Positions 22,369 to 25,879 of a stretch of 64,000 nt of DNA are shown here, in pieces. A model generated the notes under the pieces. The model was not told where the DNA came from. It did no database searches and saw nothing but the letters and a program-made list of their open reading frames with translations. The number at the start of each line of letters is the position of its first letter. Position 1 is the first letter of the stretch. The translations under genes and the position numbers were made by a program. Source of the stretch: an uncultured Chloroflexia bacterium. GTDB taxonomy: Bacteria; Chloroflexota; Anaerolineae; CG2-30-64-16. Location of the stretch: assembly GCA_963774265.1 (NCBI GenBank), contig CAVZDU010000003.1, positions 288,001 through 352,000 of the forward strand. The letters are read 5' to 3'.

Positions 22369-23289
22369 ATGCACACGATCCTTCGCTCGGCCGCGGGCGT
22401 TGAGACCATCATCGGACCCGACCAGCCGTTCGTCATTATCGGCGAGCGGATCAACCCGACCGGCCGCAAGGCGCTGGCCGCGGAGATGCTGGTTGGCAAC
22501 TTCGAACGGGTCAAGGCCGACGCCCTTGCCCAGGTCCAGGCCGGCGCCACGGTGCTGGATGTGAACGCGGGATTGGGCGTGGCCAACGCACACGATCTCG
22601 AGCCAGTGGTGATGGCCAGGGCCATCGAGGCCGTACAGTCGGTGGTGGACATACCCCTGTGCATCGATTCTTCGGTGCCCGGTGCGTTAGTGGCTGGGCT
22701 GAAGGCAGCAGGCGGCCGGCCGCTGATTAATTCGGTCACCGGCGAGGAGGAGCGCATGGAAAAGGTGCTTCCGCTGGTCGCAGAGCACAGATGCGCAGTG
22801 ATCGCGATCTCGAACGACGAATCGGGCATAAGCATGGACCCGAAGGTGCGATTTCAGGTGGCTAGGCGCATCGTGGAGCGGGCGGAGCGCTACGGCATCC
22901 CGCGTGAGGACATCTTGATCGACCCGCTGGTCATGCCCGCAGGCGCGGTCCACGCGGCAGGACGTGCGGTGCTCGATATTCTGCGGTGGATCGGCGACGA
23001 ACTGGGATGTAACACCGTGTGCGGCGCGAGCAACGTGTCATTCGGCTTGCCCGATCGGGAGGCGATCAACGCAACGTTCCTGGCGATGCTGGCCGCGGGC
23101 GGCATGACCAGTGCGATCACGAACCCGCTCAAGCCCGAGCTGAAGAAAGCCGTGATGGCCGCAGATATGTTGCTGGGGAATGACCCTGACTGTCTGAGGT
23201 GGCTGAAATATCAGCGCCAGCTCGTCGGCGAAGTCACGAGCGAGCGCGAGGCGCGCCGCGCTGCAAGGCGGGCCGAACGCGACGGATAA
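22369..23289 (+). CDS. Methyltetrahydrofolate:corrinoid methyltransferase (MetH pterin-binding module)
   Basis: IIGERINPTGRK, LDVNAG, PLCIDSS, INSVTGEEE, GASNVSFGLP; GGAG RBS. Confidence 0.9.
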   Translation: MHTILRSAAGVETIIGPDQPFVIIGERINPTGRKALAAEMLVGNFERVKADALAQVQAGATVLDVNAGLGVANAHDLEPVVMARAIEAVQSVVDIPLCIDSSVPGALVAGLKAAGGRPLINSVTGEEERMEKVLPLVAEHRCAVIAISNDESGISMDPKVRFQVARRIVERAERYGIPREDILIDPLVMPAGAVHAAGRAVLDILRWIGDELGCNTVCGASNVSFGLPDREAINATFLAMLAAGGMTSAITNPLKPELKKAVMAADMLLGNDPDCLRWLKYQRQLVGEVTSEREARRAARRAERDG

Positions 23290-23355
23290 TCTTCAATCTT
23301 TGATTTTCAATCTGCAATTCATCAAGGGAGTTGCTGATTAGCCGTTGGCTCACCG

Positions 23356-23383
23356 TTGACGGATGAAAATGGGGGCGTAGAAT
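23356..23383 (+). promoter_or_regulatory. Sigma70 promoter inside the IS110 left end
   Basis: TTGACG-16 bp-TAGAAT. Confidence 0.65.
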
Positions 23384-23389
23384 GGTGGA

Positions 23390-23566
23390 GACGCCCTGGC
23401 ATGAAGTCGGATGAATTACCTGGTGCCACGAGTCCGCAAGGGAGTTTGGCTCGAGTGCCTGCAGGCACCGTAGACTGTGGCCCTCCAATTTGGGGGAGTA
23501 CGCGAAGGAGACTCTTCGCATATCAGGCACTCCGCTGGGGCGATCACGAGCAAGCGGAGGCGCACG
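23390..23566 (+). ncRNA. Candidate IS110 bridge RNA
   Basis: Downstream of the promoter, several hairpins. Contains CAAGGGAGT (target left), GGATGA (reverse complement of target right), CGAAGGAG (donor left) and ATCAGgcACTCC (reverse complement of donor junction, 10/12). Confidence 0.6.
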
Positions 23567-24808
23567 ATGCAAGTGGTCTATGAGCGGTGCTGCGGGATCG
23601 ATGTGCACAAGCGCACGGTGGTGGCGTGTGCGATCGTGCCTGGGCCGGATGGGCAATCGGTGAAGGAGACCCGCACGTTTGATACCTTGACCGAGAACCT
23701 GGAAGCACTGGCGGAATGGTTGCAGGGCCTTGGGGTCACGCACGTGGCGATGGAGAGCACCGGGGTGTACTGGAAGCCGGTGTACAACCTGCTCGACGGG
23801 CGGTTTGCCATTCTGGTGGTCAATGCAGAGCACATCAAGGCGTTAGCTGGCCGCAAGACGGATGTGCAAGATGCGGAGCGGATTGCGGACCTGCTGCGGC
23901 ACGGGCTGCTCAAAGGGAGCTTCATTCCTTCGGCTGAGCTACGTGCGTTGCGCGATCTGACTCGCTACCGCACCAAGCTGGGCGATGAGCGCGTCAGTGA
24001 GATCAATCGGGTGCAGAAGGTGCTGGAAGACGCCAACATCAAGCTGGCGAGCGTGGCGACCGATGTGATGGGTGTCAGCGGACGAGCGATGCTGGATCAG
24101 ATCGTGCAAGGCCAGGCCGATCCAGCCGTGTTGGCCGAGCTGGCCAAGGGTCGCCTGCGGGACAAGCTGGACCTGCTGCAGAAGGCGCTAAGTGGACGCG
24201 TGCAGGCGCATCATCGCTTCATGTTGGCGCAGCACCTGAGCCACATCGACTTCTTGGACGAGGCCATCGACCGGCTCGACCAGCAGATCGCGGAGCAGAT
24301 GCGCCCTTTTGCGCCGGCGCTGGCGGCCTGGGACTCGCTGCCGGGGATCAACCAGCGGATTGCGGAGATCGTCGTCGCTGAGATTGGGGCCGACCTGCAG
24401 CCGTTCGAGGATGCGGAGCATCTGGCTTCGTGGGCGGGCATGTGTCCCGGCAACAACGAAAGTGCCGGCAAACGCTACAGTGGCAAGACCCGCAAAGGCA
24501 GTCCCTGGCTGCGGCGAGCCTTGGTGGAAGCGGCGCACGGCGCTGCCCGCACCAAGCACAAGTACTTCCAGGCGCTCTATGGGCGCCTGGCGGCCCGGCG
24601 GGGCAAACAACGGGCGCTAATGGCCGTCGGGCACAGCTTGCTGGTCACCGGTTACTACTTGATCACCCGGCAAACCAAGTACGAGGACTTAGGCGGCAAC
24701 TACTTCGACGAGCGCGACTGTGAAGCTGTGAAGCGGCGGGCCGTCAAACGCCTGGAGAAGCTGGGCTATCAGGTCCAACTGGTGCCAGCCGCCGTCCCAA
24801 CCGGGTAA
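23567..24808 (+). CDS. IS110 family recombinase/transposase
   Basis: GIDVHK, MESTGVYWKP, GRKTDVQDA (DEDD RuvC); SWAGMCPGNNESAGK with catalytic Ser; GGAGG RBS. Confidence 0.95.
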   Translation: MQVVYERCCGIDVHKRTVVACAIVPGPDGQSVKETRTFDTLTENLEALAEWLQGLGVTHVAMESTGVYWKPVYNLLDGRFAILVVNAEHIKALAGRKTDVQDAERIADLLRHGLLKGSFIPSAELRALRDLTRYRTKLGDERVSEINRVQKVLEDANIKLASVATDVMGVSGRAMLDQIVQGQADPAVLAELAKGRLRDKLDLLQKALSGRVQAHHRFMLAQHLSHIDFLDEAIDRLDQQIAEQMRPFAPALAAWDSLPGINQRIAEIVVAEIGADLQPFEDAEHLASWAGMCPGNNESAGKRYSGKTRKGSPWLRRALVEAAHGAARTKHKYFQALYGRLAARRGKQRALMAVGHSLLVTGYYLITRQTKYEDLGGNYFDERDCEAVKRRAVKRLEKLGYQVQLVPAAVPTG

Positions 24809-24835
24809 TCGAGATCATTTTCGAAGGAGTCATCC

Positions 24836-25879
24836 ATGAATCCAGTTTTGCTGAAACTCGGCCCTTTTCAGGTGCACTGGTATGGCCTGTTGATCGTCCT
24901 CGGCGCAGTGTTAGCGGCCTGGCTGGCAACCAAAGAGGCGCAGCGCCGCGGCGAAGATCCGGAGCACGTGTGGAACTTGCTCACGTGGTGCTTGATTCTC
25001 GGCATCATCGGCGCGCGACTGTATCACGTTTTCTCCACGCCCACCGGTAACTTCGCCGGCTGGGCGTACTATCGCGAGAATCCGCTCGACATTATCAAGT
25101 TCTGGAACGGTGGTTTCCGCGGCCTGGGCATCTATGGCGCAGTCGCGGGCGGTGTCCTGGCGGTCATCATCTACGCGTGGCGCAACAAACTGGTTCTGCT
25201 GCGTTGGTTGGACATTCCCACCCCAGGGCTGCTGGTGGCGCAAGCGATAGGCCGGTTGGGCAATCGCATCAATCAGGAACTGTACGGTCCGCCGACGGAT
25301 CGCCCTTGGGCATTCCACATCGATCCGCGCTTTCCGTGCCAGGAGCCGGCCGGTTCGCCCAATGCATGCGGCCTATCCGACCGTCTGACGCCCGAAGCCG
25401 CCGAGTGGTACAGCGCCAACGGTTTCCACCCGACATTCTTCTACGAGATGCTATGGAATCTGGCCGGCTTCCTGGTCCTCTGGTTCGGCGGTCGCGCGTT
25501 GGTCAAGAAGCTGCGCGACGGCGACATCTTCTTCGCCTACATGATCTGGTACGGGATCGGTCGTTACTGGGTCGAGATGTTCCGGCCTGACGCATGGCGC
25601 ATGGGCGCGCTGGCCACCGCACAGTGGATTGCCCTCGGAATGATCGCAGCGGGCGTCCTTGCCATCATCATTAACCACATGCGCCCTCAGCGCGCAGTCC
25701 CGGAGCCCGTGGCGGTTGAACCTGCAGCGGTTGAACCTGCGGTGGTTGAACCCGTGGCAGATGAACCCGTGGTGGCTGAGCCAGCGGCGCTTGAATCCGT
25801 GCCGGATGAACCTGTAGCGGTTGAACCCGCGGCACATGAACCCGTGGCGGCTGAACCCGAGGACAGCGAAGCGGTATAG
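24836..25879 (+). CDS. lgt: Prolipoprotein diacylglyceryl transferase with an acidic Pro-rich repeat tail
   Basis: HWYGL, GARLYHV, AQAIGRLGN..NQELYG, HPTFFYE, GRYWVEMFR; 15-bp EPVAV repeats at ~25702-25860. Confidence 0.93.
   Translation: MNPVLLKLGPFQVHWYGLLIVLGAVLAAWLATKEAQRRGEDPEHVWNLLTWCLILGIIGARLYHVFSTPTGNFAGWAYYRENPLDIIKFWNGGFRGLGIYGAVAGGVLAVIIYAWRNKLVLLRWLDIPTPGLLVAQAIGRLGNRINQELYGPPTDRPWAFHIDPRFPCQEPAGSPNACGLSDRLTPEAAEWYSANGFHPTFFYEMLWNLAGFLVLWFGGRALVKKLRDGDIFFAYMIWYGIGRYWVEMFRPDAWRMGALATAQWIALGMIAAGVLAIIINHMRPQRAVPEPVAVEPAAVEPAVVEPVADEPVVAEPAALESVPDEPVAVEPAAHEPVAAEPEDSEAV

Follow-up and report, generated by a model that had tools for sequence, protein, structure and literature searches.

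In the bridge RNA of IS621, an insertion sequence (IS) of the IS110 family, the target-binding loop follows the order stem, left-target guide (LTG), stem loop and right-target guide (RTG), and the donor-binding loop is arranged likewise with a left-donor guide (LDG) plus a guide for the right donor (RDG) (PMC11208158). The IS621 RNA is encoded in the long left end, upstream of the DEDD/Tnp recombinase gene, and is built from two pseudo-symmetric modules, each with a stem that closes it, a hairpin that caps it and a single-stranded stretch on either side. Its left guides read the bottom strand, including a two-nucleotide core common to both modules, the RTG reads the top strand, and a dinucleotide adjacent to the core reads the partner DNA (the handshake) (Durrant 2024, PMC11208160; Hiraizumi 2024, PMC11208158). 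In ISEc21, the bottom-strand match lies 5' of the top-strand match, and the seekRNAs of IS1111-type elements show the reverse (PMC11187229). Surveys have found diverse bridge RNA structures, many of which deviate from that of IS621 (PMC11208160; bioRxiv 10.64898/2026.10.21.760802). Here we describe an IS110-family element of an uncultured Chloroflexia bacterium, located in a stretch of 64,000 nucleotides of contig CAVZDU010000003.1 (positions 288,001 to 352,000; hereafter "the window", from whose first base all coordinates are counted). With IS621 it shares the place of the RNA, the two-module build, the strands read by the left guides and by the RTG, the common core and a handshake dinucleotide. 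Its left end is likely to encode a bridge RNA of a conserved clade in which the guide order is mirrored, and in which the segment that an earlier note on this DNA took for a fourth guide is a structural stem. The two sides of the target are termed LT and RT, and those of the donor LD and RD.

The limits of the element have been obtained from its copies. Three copies of 99–100% identity are present in the genome, along with a fourth copy of 83% identity and a left-end fragment of 155 nt. Each of the three extends from TTGCTGATT (in one copy TTGTCGATT) to TTTTCGAAGGAG, corresponding to 23331–24829, and all three are inserted in the context AAGGGAG-N5-7-ATG. In the window, the element interrupts the 5' region of lgt, with the Shine-Dalgarno sequence on one side and the start codon on the other. 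The same region is uninterrupted in five of five genomes of the genus, and the empty site of the closest congener reads TTCATCAAGGGGG to the left of the insertion point and TCGTCCATGAA to its right. The left targets of the sibling copies are TCAAGGGAG and GAAGGGAG. Because of the empty sites and the shared copy ends, the event can be read as a simple insertion, and the element ends assumed in the earlier note, together with its target and donor reconstructions, are right. The non-coding part measures 236 nt at the left end and 21 nt at the right end, placing the non-coding region upstream of the transposase gene.

The product of that gene, a 413-aa protein, matches PF01548 (DEDD_Tnp_IS110; E = 9.9e-33) and PF02371 (Transposase_20; E = 4.4e-20), both above the curated cut-offs. 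Residues D12, E63, D99, D102 and S299 are invariant or nearly so among 20 relatives, and the catalytic residues align with the IS621 motifs GID, E(A/S)TG, KTD..DA and ES. The only solved structures in the PDB that the protein matches are those of IS621 (9e-17) and ISCro4 (1.2e-13), and a search of plasmid proteins found no closely related named IS. A sample of 401 genomes of the phylum contains 43 with homologues. Two scans of genome and metagenome collections gave 572 and 396 relatives, and 80 loci were taken from each. The elements related to it by sequence are of the IS110 type and belong to Chloroflexota, Acidobacteriota, Firmicutes and Actinomycetota. An nhmmer profile of the left-end core aligned 180 upstream regions, 173 of them usable, and the RNA family spans elements from many phyla. 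The profile also matches plasmid elements of Rhodococcus, Mycolicibacterium and Streptomyces (E = 3.1e-10, 4e-5 and 8.8e-4; 38–47.5% protein identity), and gives no match in a Citrobacter element of 33% identity.

Six helices of the left-end RNA (Table 1) have been found from pair counts across the relatives. In 51 diverse sequences aligned with MAFFT independently of any structure, the helices are paired in 85.0% of 1,466 cells as compared with 73.7% in shuffles, none of which reaches 85.0% (0 of 500). Compensatory cells number 208 against 75 in shuffles, and slid controls give 31–49%. The helices covary as RNA helices do, with G-U pairs. In hairpin H2, four of five pairs show compensatory changes. 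The closing stem of the donor module, P3, scores 6 or more as a helix in 92 of 101 relatives, among which 83 distinct 5' strands occur; its own complementarity is 7.48 as compared with 5.08 in shuffles (z = 21.6), and it is 79% paired with compensatory changes in all nine pairs. RNAalifold on the hidden Markov model alignment recovers H2 alone. Two competing foldings, the pairing of UGGUGCC with GGCACC(G/A) and a local hairpin of GUGCCUGCAGGCAC, have been rejected, as covariation favors H2 and P3. The term "structured" used in the earlier note is therefore borne out by the comparative analysis and not by the fold of the single sequence.

The guides are placed with respect to these helices. The LTG consists of the eight bases after H2, and a 7-mer of it with at most one mismatch is found in the left flank of 149 of 171 elements; the column scan gives z-scores of 11.7–18.5. 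The LDG consists of the eight bases after H4. Here, 152 of 164 elements contain, past the stop codon, a 7-mer with at most one mismatch, and in 146 of these 152 the matched right end is preceded by the motif (C/T)ATTTTC. In copy B, the copy of 83% identity, the LDG and the right end have changed together and both read CAAGGGAG. The strings on which the earlier note based its guides are all present, including CAAGGGAGT at 23437–45, GGATGA at 23409–14, and GATGAATT at 23410–17, which is complementary to AATTCATC at 23316–23. Chance matches have been estimated from 20,000 mononucleotide shuffles of the 176-nt RNA. The 9-mer of the LTG arose 23 times and the 8-mer of the LDG 115 times, and covariation supports both placements.

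The same core is found in both loops in 171 of 173 elements (AG in 129, AA in 39–40, AC in 4). The two bases that follow the LTG, 23445–46, repeat the first two bases of the element; the guide of the 3' side therefore extends across the left product junction and resembles a handshake guide. Across 128 elements, LTG+1 and LTG+2 equal RD+1 and RD+2 in 85% and 84%, respectively, as compared with 38% and 32% in shuffles, and the third base after the LTG shows no match to the element (13% versus 16% shuffled). For a second handshake, LDG+1 and LDG+2 agree with RT+1 and RT+2 in 34% and 39% of elements versus 27% and 26% in shuffles, values that lie at the margin of what shuffles give. Circularity from locating the junctions with the guides does not affect the results on the handshake, the core, the RTG and the helices.

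The remaining target guide, the RTG, is assigned to loop X, between H1 and H2. The complementarity of loop X to its own core plus right flank is 5.03 as compared with 3.75 in shuffles (z = 12.2, n = 73), and 23 of 73 elements have their best right-target match within loop X, where 7.7 are expected. When own and foreign right targets are compared, no region besides loop X stands out. A right-anchored matrix of 132 junctions shows an antidiagonal from core −1 to +5 (z = 3.3–4.9). In the register of the family, AUGAAUUA (23411–18) of the window pairs with six of the eight bases of TCATCCAT, and C23419 pairs with the core G. The earlier note had proposed GGATGA as the RTG. The loop it pointed to, 23410–20, is upheld, while its register is not, being shifted by 4 nt from that of the family; the 6-mer itself arose 1,115 times in 20,000 shuffles (5.6%) and is weak alone. 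Two other RTG candidates have been rejected: C.GA.UGU (23470–78), which is made up of conserved loop Y and the outer H4 stem, and CCCUCC (23482–87), which is the inner H4 stem.

The position of the RTG also bears on whether the element follows the canonical layout of IS621, with the LTG on the 5' and the RTG on the 3' side of the target loop. The RTG would then lie 3' of 23446, for example at GACU (23473–76), which from a reading of the sequence could pair both with the target of the element (AG followed by TC) and with its donor (AG followed by TT); the pseudo-symmetry of the two modules, as in IS621, would also fit. However, complementarity to the own right target gives z = 0.7 in region Y and z = 0.7 in the linker against 12.2 in loop X, and GACU is kept in relatives whose flanks differ. 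In addition, H1 closes directly after the LTG (23447–51), so that the target loop has nothing 3' of the LTG. We consider the canonical layout highly improbable. Since the top-strand complement 23410–20 precedes the bottom-strand match 23437–44 and the donor loop has its LDG 3', the order is IS1111-like, and the position of the RNA is that of IS110-type elements. The earlier note was thus correct that the guide order is unlike that of IS621. It overstated the case in suggesting a distinct architecture, as the reversed order has already been reported for IS1111 seekRNAs (PMC11187229) and surveys have described many bridge RNA structures unlike that of IS621.

The fourth guide of the earlier note was ATCAGGCACTCC (23522–33), read as the RDG in a layout RTG-LTG-LDG-RDG, with a GCGAAG/CTTCGC hairpin presenting the LDG. 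Its reverse complement, GGAGTGCCTGAT, matches the circle junction GGAGTTGCTGAT at 10 of 12 positions, and 10 or more of 12 arose 74 times in 20,000 shuffles. In a relative of 76% identity (L038), CACGGGACACUCC opposite TTCCCCATG is also partly complementary, and the RDG-RD pairing of IS621 itself is discontiguous (PMC11208160). On the other hand, bases 23524–32 pair perfectly with 23453–61 as the 3' strand of P3, the stem that covaries in 92 of 101 relatives and whose nine pairs all change on both sides in the alignment of 51 sequences. The segment ATCAGGCACTC does not change among relatives of 77%–100% identity, in which the right donor varies (TTGCTGAT, TTGTCTAT, TTGTCGAT, TTGCCGAT and TTGACGAT), and its CUCC can be read as an anti-Shine-Dalgarno sequence too. 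The window does contain the hairpin over the LDG; it is not conserved, however, its pairs being formed by just 21–57% of the 101 relatives. No region of the RNA has more complementarity to its own right donor than shuffled pairs do (post-LDG z = 1.3, loop Y −1.9, linker −0.4, loop X −1.3), and the position scans show no antidiagonal. As a result, no right-donor guide has been found beyond the two-nucleotide handshake, and the layout with ATCAGGCACTCC as a true RDG appears improbable. An apparent right-donor signal in the "pre" region is an artefact, as this region shares sequence with the right donor and the palindrome of the latter. In finer scans only scattered signals appear (z = 3.5–5.4), such as a match of 23515 to RD+1 in 56%, on which no interpretation is placed. 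When guide segments are compared with insertion sites across homologues, as the earlier note had suggested, the LTG, LDG and RTG covary with their sites and the "RDG" segment stays constant in close relatives despite differing left ends. Of the four guides read in the earlier note, three are in essence correct and one, the RDG, is not.

An mRNA leader has also been considered for the left end. In this explanation, the leader carries an anti-Shine-Dalgarno hairpin, and the matches to the flanks reflect element ends that resemble the Shine-Dalgarno target at the level of DNA. CUCCGCU (23530–36) can indeed pair with AGCGGAG (23553–59), and, since the target, the right end and the transposase Shine-Dalgarno sequence are all GGAG-like, some of the matches come cheaply. 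Compensatory changes in this hairpin, as judged by eye, are seen in close relatives. Across the family, its complementarity is 4.6 as compared with 4.5 in shuffles (z = 0.9), a test that does not discriminate because both partners are conserved. The explanation does not account for the guides of distant members, which match flanks that are not Shine-Dalgarno-like (for example GACCUAUUC, GGAAUGUCU and TTGCTGAG), for the core that covaries between the loops in 171 of 173 elements, or for helix covariation of the RNA type that includes G-U pairs. Moreover, the protein is homologous to two recombinases that have been solved with bridge RNAs. A leader of this kind therefore has very little probability as the whole explanation. 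At its 3' end, the 3' strand of P3 has three bases in common with the anti-Shine-Dalgarno segment, so that bridge RNA folding and recombinase translation might be coupled.

The assignment of the left end to an IS110-family bridge RNA thus agrees with that of the earlier note, and it relies on the covarying helices, the guides, and a recombinase homologous to those of IS621 and ISCro4. From the comparison of relatives, the helices, the positions of the LTG, LDG and RTG, the shared core and the handshake dinucleotide can be regarded as shown.

The earlier note had also described an internal sigma-70-like promoter, and the sequence is present: TTGACG at 23356–61 and TAGAAT at 23378–83, with a spacer of 16 (one base off from a start at 23379). 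A promoter scan of 23200–24900 finds one consensus site versus 0.3 ± 0.6 in shuffles, and that site is the internal one. No junction promoter was seen on reading the sequence. In close relatives, a TAGAAT-like −10 is kept. Across the family, a TAnnnT hexamer lies between ATGAAAATG and H1 in 48 of 73 elements, and in 29 of those 48 it ends 21–26 nt before H1. An internal promoter is plausible on these grounds. In public RNA sequencing runs, the shares found are small (at most 0.11), all as contigs; in four runs contigs of relatives cover parts of the gene, and in two of these runs parts of the left end.

Several observations count against the bridge RNA described here or against parts of it. 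There is partial circularity in the LTG and LDG counts, since the junctions were located with the same guides, and the z-scores overstate significance because relatedness makes the sequences non-independent. Folded singly, the sequence does no better than shuffles (z = −0.88; 38 of 200 shuffles fold equally), and Rfam 15 at E up to 10 gives no match in the left end; its three matches (E = 1.6–4.5) all lie within coding sequence and under the gathering score. The RTG signal is smeared over two registers one base apart, and the right flanks of the sibling copies (GTTTCA and GTCAGC) pair in register at the core plus two bases only; for these bases, the GT... flanks fit the other RTG register. Column scans, region-wise local complementarity, the H5-P3 segment, and right-anchored scans of loop Y and the post-LDG region did not find an RDG. 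The donor module is therefore incomplete by the definition of IS621, having an LDG in 152 of 164 elements and no covarying RDG. As for expression, the −35 is not conserved in close relatives, 25 of 73 elements have no −10-like hexamer between ATGAAAATG and H1, and the contigs from RNA libraries come from relatives and are silent on start, end, strand and level, the parts without cover being equally uninformative.

Taken with these reservations, the proposed bridge RNA would be ~140–175 nt in length and would probably start near 23390 from TTGACG-16-TAGAAT. In the target module, H1 closes the loop, loop X is the RTG on the 5' side, H2 caps the loop, and the LTG with the handshake UU occupies the 3' side. 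The donor module is closed by the 9-bp P3 (23453–61 with 23524–32) and a 3-bp helix (23463–65 with 23513–15), with the LDG on its 3' side. Both modules thus have the left guide on the 3' side. By analogy with IS621, the RNA would bind the recombinase and direct recombination, presumably with mirrored strand polarity; the position of the transcription start is likewise predicted.

Table 1. Features of the element, its left-end RNA and its insertion site in the window.
Feature	Position	Strand	Basis or remark
Left target plus core AG, CAAGGGAG	23323..23330	+	Shine-Dalgarno region of lgt; identical to LTG 23437-44
IS110-family insertion sequence	23331..24829	+	1,499 bp, core counted once; shared copy ends, empty sites
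Imperfect palindrome TTAGCC..GGCTCA near left end	23338..23352		TGAGCC..GGCTCA in alignments of relatives
Sigma-70-like promoter TTGACG-16-TAGAAT	23356..23383	+	10/12 matches; predicted start near 23390
Conserved ATGAAAATG	23363..23371		Inverted repeat of CATTTTC(A) in right end
Target-binding module	23405..23451	+	Closed by helix H1
Helix H1	23405-09 x 23447-51	+	91% paired; changes on both sides in 4/5 pairs
Loop X, assigned as RTG	23410..23420	+	Between H1 and H2, 5' of LTG
Hairpin H2 (UGGUGC..GAGUCCG), capping target loop	23421..23436 (23421-26 x 23432-36)	+	100% paired, 51 sequences
LTG CAAGGGAG	23437..23444	+	Same sense as left flank plus core
Handshake-like UU	23445..23446	+	First two element bases (right donor +1, +2)
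Closing stem P3, 5' strand GAGUGCCUG	23453..23461	+	Pairs with 23524-32, 9 bp
Helix H5, AGG x UCU	23463-65 x 23513-15	+	86% paired; 2/3 pairs compensatory
Conserved loop Y CACCGUAGAC	23466..23475	+	Expected RDG position
Hairpin H4, outer UGU x ACG, inner stem variable	23476..23502 (outer 23476-78 x 23500-02)	+	Outer 98.7% paired, inner 60%
LDG CGAAGGAG	23503..23510	+	Same sense as right end 24822-29
Closing stem P3, 3' strand CAGGCACUC	23524..23532	+	Inside "RDG" 23522-33 of the earlier note
Possible anti-Shine-Dalgarno hairpin, CUCCGCU 23530-36 x AGCGGAG 23553-59 (transposase Shine-Dalgarno)	23530..23559	+	Compensatory changes by eye
Transposase/recombinase gene, 413 aa	23567..24808	+	Pfam domains, PDB matches
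Right end: CATTTTC then left donor GAAGGAG	24816..24829	+	Copy comparison, family scan
Right target TCATCCATGA	24830..24839	+	Contains lgt start codon; +1 to +8 pair 23411-18 at 6/8 in family register

When the layout is read on the reverse complement of the DNA, it is exactly IS621-like, including the position of the handshake bases. This suggests, by analogy, an IS621-like machine that works in mirrored polarity relative to the element. A stronger version of this idea extends to the whole clade, reaching the actinobacterial IS110 relatives, and supposes a mirror-image mechanism. The strands exchanged first (relative to the RNA) would be those that IS621 exchanges second, and the LTG would make the handshake with the right donor. 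The right donor would be read by the protein through the conserved N4-5-CATG, the palindrome and the sub-terminal repeat, with no RNA guide, and integrated copies would go on supplying the RNA through an internal promoter. That strand order, LTG handshake and protein-read right donor hold jointly is doubtful at present.

Some further features of the element ends have been noted. The palindrome at 23338–23352 comes after a left-end start resembling N4-5-CATG in the window and in several relatives (L008, L009, L012 and others). Its arms differ in sequence among distant members, which suggests that a structure of the right donor, in DNA or RNA, is conserved. Motif ATGAAAATG (left, 23363–23371) and CATTTTCA (right, 24816–24823) form a conserved sub-terminal inverted repeat. 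Among the elements scanned, 73 carry a ATGAAAATG-like motif, and the T-run motif of the right end occurs in 146 of 152. The right copy of the repeat adjoins the bases matched by the LDG, and the left copy lies ~33 nt inside the element end; in members with a spacing of 16–18 nt to TAnnnT, the left copy could act as a −35. In the right flanks of close relatives, CATG is found 4–6 nt past the insertion point in ~10 of 15 read by eye, which exceeds the frequency expected from the start codon alone. This CATG resembles the left-end start of the element itself (N4-5-CATG / TATG / GATT). Loop X has on its 5' side a conserved GGAUG, for which CAT(C/N)C would be a possible pairing partner.

The distribution of the copies has its own pattern. 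One copy (L002, G000:C10:428298-431270) sits exactly at the right end of a relative of 83% identity, and that right end, TTTTCAAGGGAG, equals the LTG of the inserted element. Other genomes, too, repeatedly show related elements paired in tandem or nested in one another (L117, L122, L129, L024, L034), and the "left flanks" of many elements are right ends of relatives (ATTTTC-N6-AG). On a metagenome contig, a relative of 92% identity (L118) has the LDG CGAAGGAG and the right end CAAGGGAG, which differ by two mismatches; it may be a chimera that arose by recombination between neighbouring relatives. A solo left-end fragment (L005, G000:C2:601493-601639; 76% identical over 155 nt) retains H1, H2, and LTG- and LDG-like segments and is followed by no transposase open reading frame. 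The fragment could be a decayed copy of the element or, alternatively, a gene for an orphan bridge RNA.

The differences from IS621 can now be stated together. In the present element, the left guide is 3' and the right guide 5' in both modules. The handshake follows the LTG and repeats the right donor, whereas that of IS621 follows the RTG and RDG and complements the left sides. No covarying RDG is detected here, and the core is AG, AA or AC in place of CT. The candidate promoter lies wholly within the left end, while that of IS621 is rebuilt across the junction of right end and left end, with the −35 in the right end (PMC11208160; PMC11208158). The protein is also longer, 413 aa as compared with 326–341 aa, and only distantly related (E = 9e-17). 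The IS1111-type seekRNAs of ISEc11, ISPa11 and ISKpn4 share with the present RNA a top-strand complement 5' of the bottom-strand match, and the elements share sub-terminal inverted repeats (here ATGAAAATG / CATTTTCA). In IS1111-type elements, however, the non-coding region lies downstream of the gene and not upstream, and the left repeat of the present element, ~33 nt inside the end, sets it apart (Siddiquee 2024, PMC11187229). By sequence, moreover, its relatives are IS110-type elements. The text consulted of PMC11208160, PMC11208158 and PMC11187229 and the abstract of PMC13626964 contain no statement of an upstream-encoded bridge RNA with the right guide before the left, and neither does that of bioRxiv 10.64898/2026.10.21.760802 and 10.64898/2026.08.14.744561. 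The combination of upstream position, IS1111-like order, LTG handshake and no detectable RDG is thus a variant for which the literature covered, in those parts, has no statement.

The present element can also be likened to the group of IS900, IS901, IS902 and IS116, as its actinobacterial relatives carry the same RNA family. The transposases of this group have ~400 aa, as here, and the elements insert between the ribosome-binding site and the start codon at the consensus CATGN4-6*CNCCTT. They stand in the opposite orientation to the host gene, unlike the present element. A literature search joining "bridge RNA" and "IS900" found nothing.

For the genome itself, the outcome is an ordinary one: a site-specific IS that targets the spacers between Shine-Dalgarno sequences and start codons as well as the right ends of its relatives. 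The wider meaning concerns the family. Bridge recombinases are under development as tools for programmable genome rearrangement, and the design rules in use, such as guide positions and handshake bases, derive almost wholly from IS621 and ISCro4. The clade described here is very widespread, with 572 and 396 relatives in the two collection scans. Mirrored guide order, an LTG handshake and the lack of a detectable RDG would alter how such orthologues are programmed. In addition, the joining of an IS110-type RNA position with an IS1111-type guide order bears on how the two groups diverged.

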